Origin: an uncultured cyanobacterium
GTDB lineage: Bacteria; Cyanobacteriota; Cyanobacteriia; PCC-6307; Cyanobiaceae
Direction of reading: 5' to 3'
NCBI GenBank assembly: GCA_963697335.1
Contig: CAVONQ010000018.1
Span: 288,001 to 352,000 of the forward strand
Length of the DNA: 64,000 nt
The first letter of the stretch is position 1. Each line of letters begins with the position of its first letter. Shown here piece after piece: positions 24,001-33,000 of the stretch. The position numbers were made by a program.

Positions 24001-27000
24001 CCTGGGCCAGGGCCTCCCCCTAGGATCGCCGGGCTGAACGCTTGTCGCTATGGCTGCCGGCTCTACAGGGGAACGTCCGTTCTTCGAAATCATCACCAGC
24101 ATTCGCTACTGGGTGATCCATGCGGTCACCTTGCCTGCGATCTTTCTTGCTGGCTTCCTGTTCGTGTCCACTGGCCTGGCCTATGACGCCTTCGGCACGC
24201 CTCGCCCTGACGCCTACTTCCAGGCCCAGGAGAGCAAGGCTCCCGTCGTGAGCCAGCGCTACGAGGGCAAGAGCCAGCTTGACCTGCGCCTGCCATAAAC
24301 CCCCATGACCCAGTCTCCCGTCTCGACCACGCCGCGCAACTACCCGATCTTCACGGTGCGCTGGCTCTCCGTTCACGCCCTGGGCATTCCCACGGTGTTC
24401 TTTCTGGGGGCCCTGGCGGCCATGCAGTTCATCCGTCGCTGAGGTCCACTGCCATGCAACGCAACCCAAACCCCAACAACCTGCCGGTTGAGCTCAACCG
24501 CACCAGCCTCTACCTGGGGCTGCTGCTGGTCTTCGTCACCGGTGTGCTGTTCACCAGTTACTTCTTCAACTGATCCGGAGGCCACCCCATGAGCGGCAAG
24601 AAATCCAACATTCCTGACGGCCGGATCCCGGATCGCCTGCCCGACGGTCGTCCGGCAGTGGCCTGGCGCTCCCGCTGGACTGCAGGCGTATTACCCCTGT
24701 GGCTGGTGGCCACCGCCGGCGGCATGGCCGTGATCTTCGTGGTGGGCCTGTTCTTCTACGGCTCCTACACCGGCGTCGGCTCTGCCTGAACCCTGGCCTG
24801 AACTCCGGCCCAAGCCACCCCCAGCGATGCATCTCCCCCGGTGGACAGCCAGGCTGCCACCGGGGTTTCCTGTGGGAGATGGCTTCTGTGCACCTCTGAC
24901 CCCCGGCCCGTTCCCCGCTCTCCGGTGAAGAAGCGCACCCTCCTGAATCACGGGGCCCTGGCCTGGGTTGCGGGTGCTCTGCTCAACGCCTACGGCCAGC
25001 TGATCCTGCTCACCTCCCGCATCGTGGTGCGCCCTGACCAGCTCAGTGCCAGCTTGATCGGCCCGCAGGGGCGCCCGGTGATCTATGCGCTCTGGCATTG
25101 CCATGTGTTCTTCATGCCGATCCTGCGCATCAGCAGCGGACGGCCCGTGGCGGTGCTGCTCAGCGCCCACCGCGATGCTCAGATCGTGGGCGTGGCGGCC
25201 CGCATGCGCGGCGTTGAGCTGGTGGCCGGCTCCTCCACGCGTGGTGGTGTGCGCGCCTATCTGCAACTGATCCAGCTGCTGCGCAGGGGCCGTTCCATCT
25301 GCATCACCCCGGATGGCCCCAGGGGCCCCGCCCGGCGCGTCAAGCCAGGCGTCGTGCACCTGGCCCAGCAGTCCGGCTGTGCCGTGGTGCCGGTGGGCCT
25401 GGCCGTGCGCCGGGGACGGCGGCTGCGCTCGTGGGACCGCACCCTGCTGCCGTTCCCCTTCTGCCGGGCCGTGCTCACCCTGGGGGCGCCCCTGTGGTTG
25501 CCGCCCGTGGACGATGCCGAGGCCCTCGCCCTGCAGGCTGAACAGCTGGAGGCGGCCCTGGAAGCTGCTTCGGAGCAGGCCACCCGTGCCTTCTGAGCCG
25601 CTGAGGCCGCTGTTGCTGGGCCTGCGCCTGCTGCAGACCCTGCTCACCCCCGGGATCCTGCTGCTGCTGCTGCTGCGGCTGTTGCAGGGCAAGGAGGAGT
25701 TCCGTCGCTTGCCGGAGCGGCTGGGCTGGGCTGGCCAGGAGCGCCCCCCCGGCCCCCTGATCTGGCTGCATGGCGCCAGCGTCGGTGAGCTCACGGCGCT
25801 GTTGCCCCTGGTGCGGGAGCTGGGCGCAGCCACGGCCCCACCAGGTCTGGAGCCCCCGGTCGTGCTGGTCACCTCGGTGAGCCGCAGCTCGGCCCAGCTG
25901 GCCCAGCGGCTGCTGCCGCAGGGGGTGATCCATCAGCTGGCGCCGGTGGACCACTGGCTGGCCATGGCCCTGTTCCGGCGGCACTGGCGGCCCCAGCTGG
26001 GTCTGCTGGCGGAGGCTGAACTCTGGCCGGAGCTGGTGCTCGCCATGCCGCGGTTGCACCTGGTCAATGCCCGCATGAGCGAGCGCTCCTTCCGTCGCCA
26101 CCGCCGCCTGCCGGCCTATGCCGCCTGGCTCTATGGCCGTGCCCGCCTCTGCTGGGCCCAGTCCGAGCCCGATGCGGCCCGCCTGCGTCGGCTCGGCGCT
26201 CCCCGGGTGGTGGTGGTGGGCTCCACCAAGCGGGACGCCGATCCCCTCGCCACGGACGGGGCGATCCTGGCCCGGCTGCAACCGCTGCTGCGCCGCCCGG
26301 TGCTGCTGCTGGCCAGCAGCCATGCCGGTGAGGAGCACCTGCTGCTCCAGGCCCGCCCGCTGCTGCAGCAGCACCTGGGCCCGCTCACCCTGGTGCTGGT
26401 GCCGCGTCACCCGCCGCGGGCTGCCGCCGTGCTCGAGCTGGCCCGGCGGCAGGGCCTTGTGGCCATTCTCTGGAGGGAGCTGGCCGCCGGAGGCCCGGCT
26501 GACCATGCTGAGCTCGACGTGCTGGTGGTGGATGTCCTGGGGGCGATGGGCAGCTGGATGGCGGCGGCGGATCTGGTGGTGATGGGCGGCAGCCTGGCTG
26601 CGGGGGGACGGCGGGTGGGGGGCCACAATCCCCTGGAGGCGATCCGCGCCGGCAAGCCGGTGGTGTGCGGGCCGGACATGGCCAACTTCGCCGGCCTGAG
26701 TGAGGAGCTTCAGGCCGCCGGTTGGCTCCATGCCTGCCCCACCGCCGAGCTGCTCTGGGCTCGGGTGGTGGAGCTGCTGAGCCGGGGAGCGCCGTCGCCA
26801 CCCCCCTTGCGTCTGGAGGGTCCCTCGCGCCGCATCGCCAGGCGCCTGATCGCTGAGCTGGCCACTGCCGAGCTCGCCGCGGCCCGCCTTGCCGAAACCA
26901 GCCTGGCCCGGGAGGGCCGTTGATGCTGATCAGGCCGCCTGCGTTCCTCTACCAGCGCGGCCCCTGTCTGAGGGCCCGGCTGCTGCGGCCCCTGGCCGTG

Positions 27001-30000: not shown

Positions 30001-33000
30001 CTACGCGCCCTTCAAGGGGCTGGCGAAGGCCAATGCAGTGCTGCAGCAGGGGGTGTCGGCTGCCCAGGACCTCTTCGCCATCCTCGATACCCCAGAGGAT
30101 CCGGTGGAGGCCGCAGCTCCGCGGCAGCAGCAGGGGGTGGCCCGGGAGCTGCGGGCAGAGGCCCTGAGCTTCGGCTACGGCACCGACCCCGTGATCCGCG
30201 AGCTGGAGCTGGTGATCCCCGTGGGCAGCACGGTGGCCCTGGTGGGCCCCAGCGGTGGCGGCAAGAGCACGATCATCGATCTCTTCTGCCGCTTCTACGA
30301 CCCAGATGGCGGCCGAATCTGCATTGATGGCCTCGACATCCGCGAGCTCTCCCTGGCCTCGTTGCGGAGCCTGATCTCGGTGGTGGATCAGAACACCTTT
30401 CTGTTTAACGACACGGTGGCCAACAACATCGCCTATGGCCATGCCGCGGCCTCGCGCCAGGCCGTGGAGGCCGCTGCCCGGGCCGCCAATGCCCACGGCT
30501 TCATCGCCCAGCTGCCCCAGGGCTATGACACGCTGATCGGCGAGAACGGCACCCTGCTGTCCGGCGGCCAGCGGCAGCGCATCGCCATCGCCCGCGCCCT
30601 GATCAAGAACGCCCCGATCCTGTTGCTCGACGAGGCCACCTCGGCTCTGGATTCCGCCTCGGAGCAGGTGGTTCAGGAAGCCCTGGATCGCCTGATGAGC
30701 AACCGCACCACCCTGGTGGTGGCCCATCGGCTCTCCACGGTGGTGAACGCCGACCGGATCTGCGTGATCGAGGCCGGCGCGATGGTGGAATCCGGCACCC
30801 ACGCCGAGCTGATGGCTCACGGCGGCCGGTACGCCGCCTTATTTTCGACACAATTCGCAAACCCAACCTTGGTGTCGCCCCGATGACCATCGCCCCCAGC
30901 CGTTCCCCGGCCCCCTCCGGCGCCACCTGGCAGCGGGCCGACTGGGCCAGCTCCTTCCGCAACGTGGGCACCGAGCTCGCCGATGTGGCCGTCACGGCGA
31001 GTCGGGGCACCATCCCGGCCGAGCTCCGCGGCAGCCTCTACCGCAACGGCCCGGGCCGGCTGGAGCGGGGCGGGCAGTGGGTGCACCACCCCTTCGATGG
31101 CGACGGCATGATCACGGCCCTGCGCTTTGAGGGCGGCGCGGCCCGGCTCAGCAACCGCTTCGTGCGCACGGAGGGCTGGCAGGCCGAGGAGAGCGCCGGC
31201 CGCTTCGTCTATCGCGGCGTGTTCGGCACCCAGAAGCCGGGGGGGGCTCTGGCCAACGCCTTCGACCTGCGGCTCAAGAACATCGCCAACACCCACGTGG
31301 TGCGCCTCGGCGACCAGCTGCTGGCCCTCTGGGAGGCGGCCGAGCCCCATGCCCTCGATCCCCAGACCCTCGAAACCCGGGGCCTCAGTCGCCTTGAGGG
31401 GGTGCTCAAGCCAGGTGAGGCCTTCAGCGCCCACCCCCGCTTCGACCCCGGTCACCGGGGGGCGCCGCGGATGGTGACCTTTGGGGTCAAGAGCGGGCCG
31501 CGCAGCACGATCCGGCTGATGGAGTTCGCCACGGCCGACGACCCTGCCGCCGGCGTGCGGGCGGGCCAGCTGCTGGCGGAGCGCCACGACACGATGGCGG
31601 GCTTCGCCTTCCTGCACGACTTCGCCATCACCCCCAACTGGGCCGTGTTCCTGCAGAACGCCATGGCCTTCAACCCCCTCCCCTTCGTGTTTGGCCAGAA
31701 GGGGGCGGCCCAGTGCCTGGCCTCCAAGCCCGGCGAGATCGGCCGCTTCTTTCTGGTGCCCCGTCCCGGCAGCGCGGCGGCGGAGCGCCATGCCAAGCCC
31801 CTGGAGGTGCCAGCACCCGAGGGCTTTGTGTTCCACCACCTCAATGCCTTCGAGGATGAAGCCACGGGCGAGCTGGTGCTCGATTCGATCTTCTACGCCG
31901 ACTTCCCCTCGATCGGCCCCGGGGAGGACTTCCGCTCCGTGGACTTCGAGGCCATTCCCGAGGGGCAGCTGAAGCGCTGCCGCATCGATCTGGAACGGGC
32001 CGCCACTGATCCCGCCGGGGCCGTGAGCTCCGACTGGCTCGAGCAGCGCTGCTGTGAGTTCGCCACGGTGCATCCGGCCCGCCAGGGACGCGAGGCCCGC
32101 TTCGCCTGGATGGCCGTGACCGAGCAGGAGCGCGGCAATGCGCCGCTGCAGGCCATCGAGAAGCTGGATCTCAGCAGTGGGGAGCGCCGTGTGTGGTGCG
32201 CCGGGGCACGCAGCTTCGTGAGCGAGCCCGTGATGGTGCCCCGCGCCGCCACAGGGTCTGAAGCCGCCACCGGTTCTGAAGACGACGGCTGGGTGCTCTG
32301 CGTGGTGTGGAACGGCGCCCGCTGCGCCAGTGATCTGGTGATCCTCAACGCCGACGATCTCTCGGAGCAGGCGGTGCTGGAGCTGCCCCTGGCCATCCCC
32401 CATGGCCTGCACGGCAGCTGGGTGGCGGCCTAAGGGCTGGCGAACAGCTGGCGCAGCTGGGGTTCGAGGGCCGCGAAGGCGCGGCCCCGATGGCCCAGGC
32501 GGGCCTTGGTGGCACTGTCCATCTCGGCAAAGGTCTGGCCGGCCTCGGGCACGTGGAACACCGGGTCGTAGCCGAACCCCCCTGTGCCCCGGGGCGCCTC
32601 CAGAATCACGCCCGGACAGTGGCCCTCCACCGCCAGCCGCACCCGGCCGCGGGGGTCGGCCACGGCCAGGGCGGCGCTGAACTGAGCCCTGCGCTCCTCG
32701 GTGTCAGCCAGTTCCTCGTCGGCCAGTTCCTCCAGCAGCCGGGCGATGCGGGCGGCATCGGTGGCGGCGTAGCGGGCTGAATGCACTCCAGGGGCGCCGC
32801 CCAGGGCCGCCACGCAGAGGCCGGAATCGTCGGCCAGGGCCCAGCACCCTGTCAGGCGGGCCACGACGCTCGCCTTGATGGCGGCGTTCTCGGCGAAGCT
32901 GCTTCCCGTTTCCTCCACCTCCAGGCCTTCGGGCTGGGGCCTCAGCTCCAGGCCCAGCCCCGCCAGCAGCCGGCTGAATTCGCCCACTTTGCCGGCGTTG

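Follow-up and report, generated by a model that had tools for sequence, protein, structure and literature searches.

The uncultured picocyanobacterium analysed here carries an lpxJ-waaA-lpxK-lpxB-msbA operon of proteobacterial type that is probably functional and was probably acquired laterally, once, by the common ancestor of two Cyanobiaceae genera, one of which includes Cyanobium sp. NIES-981. These late Raetz genes are chromosomal and confined to a small picocyanobacterial clade. The operon is predicted to act in late lipid A synthesis and export, its enzymatic steps and product being predictions from the genes. The enzymes are already known; the host is unexpected.

Results

Five overlapping genes behind psbEFLJ

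The operon lies in the window, that is, the whole 64,000-nucleotide stretch of DNA analysed, with the following features:

24050-24298, plus strand: psbE (sequence, frames)
24305-24442, plus strand: psbF (sequence, frames)
24454-24573, plus strand: psbL (sequence, frames)
24589-24789, plus strand: psbJ (sequence, frames)
24925-30886, plus strand: operon lpxJ(DUF374)-waaA-lpxK-lpxB2-msbA, tightly overlapping, with psbEFLJ 5' and the RPE65-type oxygenase 3'
24925-25596, plus strand: lpxJ (DUF374), lipid A late (secondary) acyltransferase; PF04028 78.5 bits, cut-off 26.8
25586-26923, plus strand: waaA (kdtA), Kdo transferase (GT30); PF04413 149.3 bits, cut-off 23.9
26920-28014, plus strand: lpxK, tetraacyldisaccharide-1-P 4'-kinase; TIGR00682 192.3, cut-off 91.95; PF02606 276.9
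28005-29141, plus strand: lpxB2, second lipid-A-disaccharide synthase; TIGR00215 270.3, cut-off 190.25
29138-30886, plus strand: msbA-type ABC half-transporter (lipid A-core flippase); TIGR02203 580.5 bits
30883-32433, plus strand: RPE65-type carotenoid/apocarotenoid cleavage oxygenase; PF03055 418 bits

Profile scores and reading frames agree with a first-pass annotation that had placed these genes behind psbEFLJ. As read from sequence and frames, the start codon of every operon gene from waaA on overlaps the stop of the gene before: waaA begins at a GTG and shares 11 nt with the end of lpxJ, lpxK starts at TTG 26920 or ATG 26923 within the end of waaA, lpxB2 overlaps the lpxK stop by 10 nt, and lpxB2 and msbA share an ATGA. 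For lpxJ, an alternative upstream start exists at GTG 24841.

Each of the five genes is intact, retains the motifs of its family and evolves under purifying selection. The first gene had been described as lysophospholipid-acyltransferase-like, a label that has to be replaced, since DUF374 is LpxJ, a family of late acyltransferases for lipid A whose members in Helicobacter, Campylobacter, Wolinella and Rickettsia have been characterised (PMC6148475). Residues W57-H58, D84, D130 and W170-D171 are invariant across 36 aligned homologues and match those that this source gives as critical in R. typhi LpxJ (PMC6148475). In LpxK, which matches the solved structures 4ehw/4ehx, P-loop residues G53, N54, G58, G59, G61 and K62 as well as D159 and D160 do not vary among 28 aligned sequences. 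WaaA matches the solved WaaA chains 4bfc and 2xci, and in NCBIfam its top hits are without exception models of lipid IV(A) Kdo transferase, with a score (238.6) below the cut-off of 617. The lpxB2 product matches solved E. coli LpxB (5w8n) and is just 36% identical to the LpxB encoded on contig C7 of the same genome. MsbA scores slightly below the TIGR02203 cut-off of 602, yet this is its best of 187 families, and among solved half-transporters MsbA is its best match (406 bits). Compared with the closest complete relative, G005, dN/dS was 0.14 for lpxJ, 0.38 for waaA, the weakest constraint of the five, 0.20 for lpxK, 0.17 for lpxB2 and 0.13 for msbA.

The psbEFLJ genes (24050-24789, plus strand), the cytochrome b559/PSII operon, lie directly upstream of lpxJ, and PsbE is 95-100% identical at the same locus in relatives. 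In a simple scan the spacer from psbJ to lpxJ showed no terminator-like site, the first one further upstream being at 23933, and a shared transcript of psbEFLJ and the lpx operon is possible. No RNA run was found to contain the stretch. On the other side, the ATG of the RPE65-type gene overlaps the msbA stop. This gene is native context, occurring in all five complete genomes from operon-free genera, at 57-72% identity by tblastn and 60-78% in a second comparison. The order upstream gene-psbEFLJ-operon-RPE65 is kept in 7/7 loci examined (four from carrier genus g1, to which this genome belongs, and three from carrier genus g47). Among the five non-carrier genomes no simple empty site was found; in four, 12-16 kb separate the two flanks of the operon, which are on opposite strands.

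The late genes follow a narrow distribution

LpxK is intact and over cut-off in 32/32 genomes of the genus, and over cut-off in 54 of 401 sampled family genomes, which belong to 2 of 64 genera. LpxI was found in 53 and WaaA, over cut-off, in 57 of the same 401. The narrow distribution noted in the first-pass annotation holds, with counts that differ from its 27/31 for the genus and 50/822 for the family. All family matches of LpxK and LpxI fall within g1 and g47, as do the strong WaaA matches bar one g49 genome; in genus g9, a few further WaaA matches are above cut-off but marginal (23-27 bits). In the phylum sample, LpxK was over cut-off within the class only in G000 and one g47 genome, and also in 175 genomes labelled as the same phylum but another class.

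The trait had been assigned to most of the genus, but it is not uniform: of 29 g1 genomes sampled, 25 have WaaA (as do 26 of g47), and the other four retain lpxJ, lpxK, lpxB2, msbA and kdsB. In G007, the one WaaA-less genome examined, glycosyl- and sulfotransferases occupy the waaA slot. Loss of waaA in these four genomes implies that the Kdo step is dispensable in some members at least.

The remaining pathway genes and two gaps

The other loci named earlier were also recovered: LpxI at C18:286739-287569, about 25 kb from the operon, kdsD-kdsA-kdsC on C3 and the native lpxC-fabZ-lpxA-lpxB cluster on C7. LpxI, a UDP-diacylglucosamine hydrolase of the type first solved from Caulobacter, scores 192, below the NCBIfam equivalog cut-off of 400; among 14 control genomes only Caulobacter matched the model. 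Its distribution equals that of the operon (g1 and g47). An LpxL-type gene lies elsewhere on the operon's contig, and KpsS and KpsC are encoded on C7. Kdo genes had been listed with the lipid A genes, and kdsC-kdsA-kdsD are indeed present, but KdsB occurs in 131/271 family genomes and in 35/64 genera, most of which lack WaaA, which places Kdo genes outside the narrow trait.

A search of the assembly, which is 98.8% complete, recovered neither lpxD nor kdsB, nor a remnant of either. The only CTP_transf_3 gene was considered as kdsB and rejected, being PseF/NeuA-like and located beside KpsC and NeuB. The earlier claim that the genome holds the steps for a 4'-phosphorylated Kdo-lipid A is sound for the late genes, which are intact, but not for every step: the assembly lacks kdsB in addition to lpxD and, as it stands, can make neither lipid A nor CMP-Kdo. 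The absence of lpxD, reported before, likely reflects an assembly gap. Across the genus, 30 of 32 genomes have LpxD and 29 of 32 have KdsB.

The operon was probably grafted onto the native early pathway of lpxA, lpxC, lpxD and lpxB. LpxI would convert UDP-2,3-diacylglucosamine to lipid X, LpxB (native, acquired or both) would form the disaccharide-1-phosphate, LpxK would add the 4'-phosphate, and WaaA would add Kdo from CMP-Kdo. Secondary acyl chains should come from LpxJ and probably also from the LpxL-type enzyme, before MsbA would flip the product, presumably a 4'-phosphorylated Kdo-lipid A, over the inner membrane.

Trees place LpxK, WaaA and MsbA next to Alphaproteobacteria

Foreign origin had been proposed from identities and now has a basis in trees, a careful one of 69 rows for LpxK and quick ones for WaaA and MsbA. 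Picocyanobacterial LpxK forms one clade (100/100) that nests with proteins from MAGs labelled Proteobacteria or Alphaproteobacteria (100/98), and named Alphaproteobacteria form the sister group of this mixed clade (100/97). The WaaA and MsbA trees concur: WaaA branches with alphaproteobacterial WaaA adjoining lpxK, and MsbA joins the lpxK-linked MsbA proteins of Alphaproteobacteria and Syntrophaceae and stands apart from the seven other ABC exporter paralogues of this genome. Forcing picocyanobacterial and same-phylum LpxK together, a grouping put to a formal test after a first tree had been seen, cost 59.5 lnL units (p-AU 0.0072). Judging by these trees, LpxK, WaaA and MsbA of the clade are proteobacterial, nearest to Alphaproteobacteria, and do not stem from the non-photosynthetic lineages of the phylum. 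Together with the AU result, they point to one old lateral acquisition.

Gene order was compared with at least 80 named loci, a set rich in Proteobacteria. The order msbA-lpxJ-waaA-lpxK occurs in 10/80 named loci among the matches listed, all labelled Alphaproteobacteria. This cluster shares four families and the lpxJ-waaA-lpxK order with the window, keeps the LpxJ catalytic residues, goes with LpxI rather than LpxH as pyrophosphatase, and is the closest named one among the matches listed (identity 36-44% for LpxK, 43-47% for MsbA, 35-45% for LpxJ). It differs in that here msbA is 3'-terminal after an extra lpxB, a lpxK-lpxB-msbA end found in 0/80 named loci among the matches listed, and in that the host is an oxygenic phototroph with the cluster behind psbEFLJ.

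Alternative explanations

The proteobacterial affinity of the proteins could in principle stem from contamination or binning, with a proteobacterial fragment misjoined to a cyanobacterial contig. We regard this as refuted because the junctions are conserved, being identical in five one-contig genomes (G005, G027, G007, G077 and G279). In addition, the operon is flanked by psbEFLJ and by a conserved cyanobacterial gene, with reading frames that overlap, its G+C of 0.69-0.74 is similar to the rest of the window, the host contig spans 543 kb with the G+C of the genome, and the named ones among the closest 120 LpxK relatives are all picocyanobacterial, in line with the earlier view of an established clade. 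It is also very improbable that the operon is a vertical relic, an ancestral late pathway of the phylum lost across the photosynthetic class except in this clade. In its favour, the 175 LpxK-bearing genomes labelled as another class share families and phylum with the window, and waaA adjoins lpxK in 5 of 12 such non-photosynthetic loci fetched. In these 12 loci, lpxJ, lpxB or msbA adjoining lpxK was not detected. Against a relic, identity to the window is low (LpxK 28-34%, WaaA 23-25%), whereas many alphaproteobacterial loci among the matches listed are closer (LpxK 36-44%, WaaA 35-44%). The LpxK tree separates both groups by the 100/98 and 100/97 branches, the AU test rejects their joint clade, and the pathway would have to have been lost from 62 of the 64 genera sampled as well as from every other family of the class in the sample.

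That the acquired genes are real but make a different product, either a Kdo-less phosphorylated glycolipid resembling lipid A or one to which the Kdo transferase homologue adds another sugar, with Kdo genes serving only the KpsC/KpsS capsule-type locus, is rather unlikely, though the most plausible of the alternatives. It would fit the many KdsB genera without WaaA, KpsS and KpsC on C7, the four WaaA-less genomes that keep the other operon genes and kdsB, and a WaaA that is below all equivalog cut-offs and has the highest dN/dS. Against it stand the retention of WaaA in the g1 and g47 genomes counted above, its best matches to models of Kdo transferases and to solved structures of WaaA, and its grouping with alphaproteobacterial WaaA beside lpxK. 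Somewhat less probable still is a pathway broken in this strain, with lpxD and kdsB truly lost through IS activity and the operon decaying. Beyond the missing genes, an ISAs1-type element (C3:206-3110) lies immediately behind kdsC, and the closest complete relative has about 100 kb, including both its kdsB copies, that is unmatched here. Yet the remaining pathway genes are all intact and constrained, three users of CMP-Kdo (WaaA, KpsS, KpsC) are retained along with kdsD/A/C, and both genes are widespread in the genus. Moreover, a run with 87% of the stretch's words has a 70-kb contig that extends from a shared control segment across the relative's lpxD position and sides with this genome at 33 of the 37 differing sites listed. 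Since the smallest contig of the assembly measures 13,967 bases, short IS-flanked pieces may be missing from it. A functional operon from a single lateral acquisition remains our preferred reading.

Discussion

The E. coli Raetz pathway comprises LpxA, C, D, H, B, K, WaaA, LpxL, LpxM and MsbA. For the carrier clade an equal reaction scheme is expected: LpxK, LpxB, WaaA and MsbA match solved enzymes and an LpxL-family gene is present, whereas LpxI replaces LpxH and LpxJ replaces LpxM. For cyanobacteria, two reviews describe a four-enzyme pathway (lpxA, lpxC, lpxD, lpxB) and, for marine Synechococcus WH8102 and CC9311, LPS without Kdo, heptose and phosphate; they take the lack of a 4'-kinase in these strains as the cause of the unphosphorylated lipid A (PMC3087551; PMC4515613). 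The carrier clade shares this early pathway, but adds LpxI, LpxK, WaaA, LpxJ, MsbA and a second LpxB. As the first-pass annotation had held, these late Raetz genes contradict the rule, as generalised in the reviews, that cyanobacteria have lpxA/C/D/B only (PMC3087551; PMC4515613), and the outer membrane of the carrier clade may resemble the classical Gram-negative type.

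A late lipid A operon behind psbEFLJ

The + strand of the window carries at 24050-32433 a single unbroken gene run, which leads from psbEFLJ through the operon lpxJ-waaA-lpxK-lpxB2-msbA (24925-30886) to an RPE65-type oxygenase gene. Here, lpxB2 denotes a second lpxB, the native copy being located on contig C7 of the same genome.

Genes of the run, with profile scores and with dN/dS against the closest complete relative (G005)
24050-24789, + strand: psbE, psbF, psbL, psbJ, followed by a 135-nt gap before lpxJ
24925-25596, + strand: lpxJ, DUF374 (PF04028), 78.5 bits vs cut-off 26.8; dN/dS 0.14
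25586-26923, + strand: waaA, Kdo transferase N domain (PF04413), 149.3 bits vs cut-off 23.9; dN/dS 0.38
26920-28014, + strand: lpxK, TIGR00682, 192.3 bits vs cut-off 91.95; dN/dS 0.20
28005-29141, + strand: lpxB2, TIGR00215, 270.3 bits vs cut-off 190.25; dN/dS 0.17
29138-30886, + strand: msbA, TIGR02203, 580.5 bits vs cut-off 602; dN/dS 0.13
30883-32433, + strand: RPE65-type oxygenase gene (flank); dN/dS 0.08

Family scans, together with matches of LpxK, WaaA, LpxB and MsbA to solved structures, bear out the gene string that the first-pass annotation had placed at this site. From lpxJ onward, stop and start codons overlap by 1 to 11 nt at each junction, which is the pattern of a putative translationally coupled operon. 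The G+C content of the operon (0.69-0.74) is similar to that of the remainder of the window, and the gene flanking the run upstream has a dN/dS of 0.11 in the comparison with G005. A simple scan of the psbJ-lpxJ gap detected nothing terminator-like, which allows read-through from psbEFLJ, though it does not demonstrate it. A scan for sigma-70-like promoters returned none in 23800-33200, a result that says little at 70% G+C.

Several further features were observed along the run. At 30820-30838, some 50 nt ahead of the RPE65-type start codon and still within the msbA 3' end, there is a terminator-like element, a G+C-rich hairpin with a T-run behind it; five sites of this kind came out of the scan, as against 2.4 expected. 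The AT skew is -0.21 in three consecutive 2-kb windows over the operon (24001-30000) and no lower than -0.16 elsewhere, making the operon the most negative AT-skew run of the window at an ordinary G+C content. Downstream, the + strand ORF at 32875-34521 has a dN/dS of 2.5 against G005 and therefore probably represents a wrong reading frame, usable as a positional marker only; the true gene is probably read in a different frame or from the opposite strand (ORF 33058-34527, - strand).

Identity and predicted roles of the encoded proteins

LpxK passes the equivalog cut-off of TIGR00682 over its full length and matches PF02606 with 276.9 bits over residues 19-356. Its P-loop (GxxxxGGxGKT) residues G53, N54, G58, G59, G61 and K62, as well as E122, D159 and D160, are invariant among 28 aligned sequences including its own, and the solved LpxK 4ehw aligns to it across the P-loop. 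LpxB2 likewise passes its equivalog cut-off (TIGR00215), aligns over residues 6-346 to E. coli LpxB (5w8n) and is 36% identical to the native LpxB of C7. WaaA matches the solved WaaA structures 4bfc and 2xci and stays under the NCBIfam equivalog cut-offs, the best of five lipid IV(A) Kdo transferase models giving 238.6 vs 617; all of its best equivalog models carry the right function, lipid IV(A) Kdo transferase, and the protein is a divergent member of this family. MsbA falls slightly below the TIGR02203 cut-off, yet this is the top of 187 families, about 118 bits above the next. Its best solved half-transporter is MsbA, and in a tree it groups with lpxK-linked MsbA proteins, apart from the seven ABC exporter paralogues of the same genome.

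The first gene of the operon was present at 24925-25596 as the first-pass annotation had it, but the label "lysophospholipid-acyltransferase-like" did not hold, since DUF374 is the known LpxJ family. According to PMC6148475, LpxJ is a late acyltransferase of lipid A that attaches the 3' secondary acyl chain, can act ahead of Kdo addition and stands in for LpxM in many bacteria; mutagenesis of Rickettsia typhi LpxJ identified W60, H61, D86, D132, W172 and D173 as critical. In the window's LpxJ, residues W57, H58, D84, D130, W170 and D171 occur in matching order and spacing, a correspondence based on motif and spacing rather than on an alignment with the R. typhi sequence, and they are invariant among 36 sequences (the window's and 35 homologues from fetched loci).

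In the proposed pathway, lipid X would be provided by LpxI and joined by LpxB with UDP-2,3-diacylglucosamine. LpxK is predicted to phosphorylate the 4' position and WaaA to add Kdo, secondary acyl chains would come from LpxJ and an LpxL-type enzyme, and the product would be flipped by MsbA.

The remaining pathway genes

We judged pathway completeness by a set comprising LpxA, LpxC, LpxD, a pyrophosphatase, LpxB, LpxK, KdsD, KdsA, KdsC, KdsB, WaaA, a late acyltransferase and MsbA.

Pathway genes of the genome outside the operon
C18:286739-287569: LpxI, PF06230, 133.8 bits vs 25; residues 6-269 align to 7-274 of solved LpxI 4ggm
C18:164617-165333: LpxL-family acyltransferase, PF03279, 100.7 bits; about 123 kb upstream of the window start
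C3: kdsD, kdsA, kdsC
C7: native lpxC-fabZ-lpxA-lpxB cluster

The earlier assignments of LpxI, supported by PF06230 and the full-length match to 4ggm, of kdsC-kdsA-kdsD on C3 and of the lpxA/C/B cluster on C7, which reads lpxC-fabZ-lpxA-lpxB, all stood. LpxI remains below the cut-off of its NCBIfam equivalog (NF047836; 192 vs 400). The LpxL-family gene is an addition to the earlier gene list; its relatives that carry names (134 at E <= 1e-10) are nearly all picocyanobacterial, with one labelled Chitinophagaceae. The claim that all steps for a Kdo-lipid A are given holds in that every other gene was found and fails for LpxD and KdsB: lpxD, as already reported, and kdsB are both absent from the assembly. 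The genome has a single CTP_transf_3 gene (C7:115988), which scores 115 bits as PseF-type, 52 with the best KdsB-type model and 32 with the KdsB equivalog TIGR00466. Because it is closest to PseF, adjoins KpsS and KpsC and lies 5 kb from a NeuB-type synthase, this gene is best read as the CMP-nonulosonate synthetase of a capsule-type locus rather than as KdsB. The locus itself (C7:112398-121680) encodes KpsS, a two-domain KpsC, the PseF/NeuA-like cytidylyltransferase and the NeuB-type nonulosonate synthase, and suggests that this cyanobacterium has a surface polysaccharide that is Kdo-linked and sialic-acid-like.

For both missing genes, loss has to be weighed against incomplete assembly. LpxD exceeds its cut-off in 30 of the 32 genus members, the misses being the genome under study and one that is 81% complete. 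In G005, which shares 94.5% nucleotide identity with our genome in the common flank, lpxD sits 7.5 kb past a segment present on contig C5, and from this segment on the assembly has no counterpart of G005 for about 17 kb. We aligned the Logan contigs of a sequencing run (X1) that contains 87% of the operon's sampled words to a 20-kb stretch of G005 around lpxD. One 70-kb contig covers, at equal depth, the shared flank (1-2435) and continues over 3918-17628, including the lpxD position (9891-10850). As it has our genome's letter at 33 of 37 listed positions where it departs from G005, it derives from a near-identical strain, not certainly the same one. The absence of lpxD is thus likely an assembly gap, in support of the first-pass suspicion.

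KdsB is over cut-off in 29 of 32 genus genomes, missing from ours and from two that are 77% and 85% complete. The gene is found directly behind kdsC in one relative (G027), though not in G005 or in the genome under study; G005 has two copies of kdsB, both in a region rich in IS elements. Given that kdsD, kdsA and kdsC are kept along with the presumed CMP-Kdo users WaaA, KpsS and KpsC, and that the smallest contig of the assembly measures 13,967 bases, it seems more likely that kdsB resided on a dropped short contig than that it was lost. Two observations concern the same regions. Right behind kdsC, near the contig end, an ISAs1-family transposase element occupies C3:206-3110, where G027 has kdsB, and similar copies of this IS occur on C6 and C7. 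Hardly any of a stretch of about 100 kb that includes both kdsB copies of G005 (G005:C1:194000-300000) is matched in our assembly at >= 85% identity; the stretch is a large variable island or else was left unassembled.

Distribution and conserved genomic place

Distribution was determined by six-frame searches, counting matches over cut-off unless stated. LpxK was detected in all 32 genomes of the genus and in 54 of 401 family genomes, confined to two of 64 genera: g1, the genus under study (29/29 plus our genome), and g47 (24 genomes). LpxI (53 of 401) occurs in the same two genera, confirming the narrow common distribution noted earlier for these two enzymes. WaaA was found in 57 of 401 family genomes, with strong matches in g1 (25/29), g47 (26) and one 73%-complete genome of g49, and a few marginal matches of 23-27 bits in g9. 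In a phylum-wide sample, LpxK was present in 177 of 401 genomes, namely ours, one of g47 and 175 labelled as belonging to another class of the phylum, the non-photosynthetic Cyanobacteriota; in six genomes of the same class, matches stayed below the cut-off (E 1e-4 to 1e-6). Names on close LpxK relatives include Cyanobium sp. NIES-981 (78%), Aphanothece, Synechococcus sp. GFB01, Cyanobium sp. CH-040 and Prado107. At E <= 1e-20, KdsB was recovered from 131 of 271 genomes of the family (104 over cut-off), spread over 35 of 64 genera, which places the Kdo synthesis genes outside the narrow trait and agrees with older chemical reports, listed in PMC4515613, of Kdo in some cyanobacterial LPS preparations.

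The order upstream gene-psbEFLJ-lpxJ-(waaA)-lpxK-lpxB-msbA-RPE65 gene was kept in all seven larger loci examined (G005, G027, G001 and G007 of g1; G077, G279 and G114 of g47), where the place of psbEFLJ rests on PsbE matches, psbF, psbL and psbJ serving as positional markers only. LpxI lies 18-27 kb from the operon on the same contig in both genera. In five complete non-carrier genomes of other genera, the RPE65 gene and its downstream neighbour were kept in every case, and psbEFLJ was absent from about 9-11 kb around the former. The psbE-side gene and the RPE65 gene were 12-16 kb apart in four of them, on opposite strands, and 480 kb apart in the fifth. No clean empty site or insertion scar was found among these five genomes, and carriers and non-carriers differ by a local rearrangement besides the insert. 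As a separate observation, the LpxK and MsbA copies of one g47 locus (L147, from G279) group with g1 (G007, GFB01) and not with other g47 sequences, which means that either the operon passed between g1 and g47 or the limits of the genera are fuzzy.

Origin of the operon

Since LpxK also occurs in non-photosynthetic members of the phylum, we compared descent within the phylum with lateral acquisition. A scan for lpxK loci covered at least 599 stretches, and the matches listed were mostly from Proteobacteria, with no picocyanobacteria. Among the loci compared, identity to the window's LpxK was 28-34% for non-photosynthetic Cyanobacteriota and 36-44% for many alphaproteobacterial loci; the corresponding values for WaaA were 23-25% and 35-44%, and alphaproteobacterial loci reached 43-47% for MsbA and 35-45% for LpxJ. 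Of 80 named loci among the matches listed, ten had the order msbA-lpxJ-waaA-lpxK, all of them alphaproteobacterial, and none had the window's 3' order lpxK-lpxB-msbA. An adjacent lpxB was seen in one named locus among those listed, from Syntrophaceae (39%), whose order is lpxB-msbA-lpxK as opposed to the window's lpxK-lpxB-msbA. In the Atlas, lpxB2 clusters belong to both Bacteroidota and Pseudomonadota, which says little about where lpxB2 came from, and Pseudomonadota are commonest among the nearest LpxK representatives.

In a carefully built tree of 69 LpxK rows (LG+C20+F+G4 by PMSF), the picocyanobacteria formed one clade (100/100), inside a group (100/98) of metagenomic proteins and two proteins labelled "Proteobacteria bacterium" and "Alphaproteobacteria bacterium"; this group is sister to named Alphaproteobacteria (100/97), and the sequences of the non-photosynthetic Cyanobacteriota lie on the opposite side together with Nitrospirota, Planctomycetota and others. 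A quick LpxK tree of 152 rows agreed, and so did quick trees built for WaaA (56 rows) and for MsbA (46 rows, among them the seven other ABC exporter paralogues of our genome), many tree rows having a deviant amino-acid composition. Constraining the picocyanobacteria and the non-photosynthetic members of the phylum together cost 59.5 log-likelihood units (p-AU 0.0072), for a hypothesis fixed beforehand and a test made after a first look at a tree. By these comparisons, the operon appears to have been acquired laterally once and then kept. As the comparison set of at least 599 stretches is rich in proteobacteria, the donor can be described no more narrowly than as of alphaproteobacterial type.

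A WaaA-less variant within the genus

Four genomes of the genus, G007 (complete), G013, G015 and G020, contain WaaA nowhere and keep lpxK, lpxI and kdsB, with lpxB adjoining lpxK in all four; lpxJ and msbA are present in G007, the single larger WaaA-less locus fetched. In the slot of waaA, the 5 kb between lpxK and lpxJ of G007 (L150:9035-14328) encode a GT4/GT1 glycosyltransferase, a GT2-like protein, a nucleotide-sugar transferase fused to a sulfotransferase, and a second sulfotransferase. The existence of WaaA-less genomes and the filling of the slot by another cassette indicate that the Kdo step is replaceable in this lineage, and weaken the notion that every carrier makes Kdo-lipid A. Combining these data, we tentatively propose a joint reading that, as a whole, we consider possible but rather doubtful. 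With one transferred operon, perhaps read through from the photosystem II psbEFLJ promoter, the clade would make a lipid A of the classical endotoxin type, 1,4'-bisphosphorylated, linked to Kdo and bearing secondary acyl chains. A sublineage of the genus would have exchanged the Kdo transferase for a glycosyl-/sulfotransferase cassette, so that its phosphorylated lipid A would carry an inner core free of Kdo and possibly sulfated. If true, the genus would serve as a natural experiment showing which of the late lipid A steps a cyanobacterial outer membrane needs.

Implications

The cyanobacterial lipid A pathway of four genes has even been termed primordial. In the literature, only lpxA, C, D and B are ascribed to Cyanobacteria (PMC3087551), their LPS is described as lacking Kdo, heptose and phosphate, with the 4'-kinase missing in WH8102 and CC9311 (PMC4515613), and it is treated as a separate, simple type of low endotoxic or even TLR4-antagonistic activity (PMC3087551, PMC4515613). 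The textbook contrast drawn by the first-pass annotation therefore corresponds to a published generalisation, and it is to this four-gene set that the carrier clade adds the whole late pathway. Public records already annotate the genes, for example the tetraacyldisaccharide 4'-kinase of Cyanobium sp. NIES-981. A full-text search, with a scope outside subscription journals and bioRxiv supplements, found no article on LpxK, WaaA or LpxI in picocyanobacteria, and no mention of them was found in passages of a picocyanobacterial ecogenomics paper (PMC9361551).

The operon is a real, well-delimited feature that places known enzymes in an unexpected lineage; as these enzymes are well known, the finding extends their host range and evolution, not their mechanism. 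It chiefly bears on cyanobacterial envelope biology and on the evolution of LPS, providing a clear example of late Raetz steps that crossed phyla as one operon and became fixed. It also gives reason for not extending the LPS properties of marine Synechococcus to coastal and brackish Cyanobium-type strains. Because the clade is culturable, the roles of phosphate and Kdo in a cyanobacterial outer membrane could be tested directly, for example in barrier function, in interactions with phages and grazers, and in phosphorus cost.
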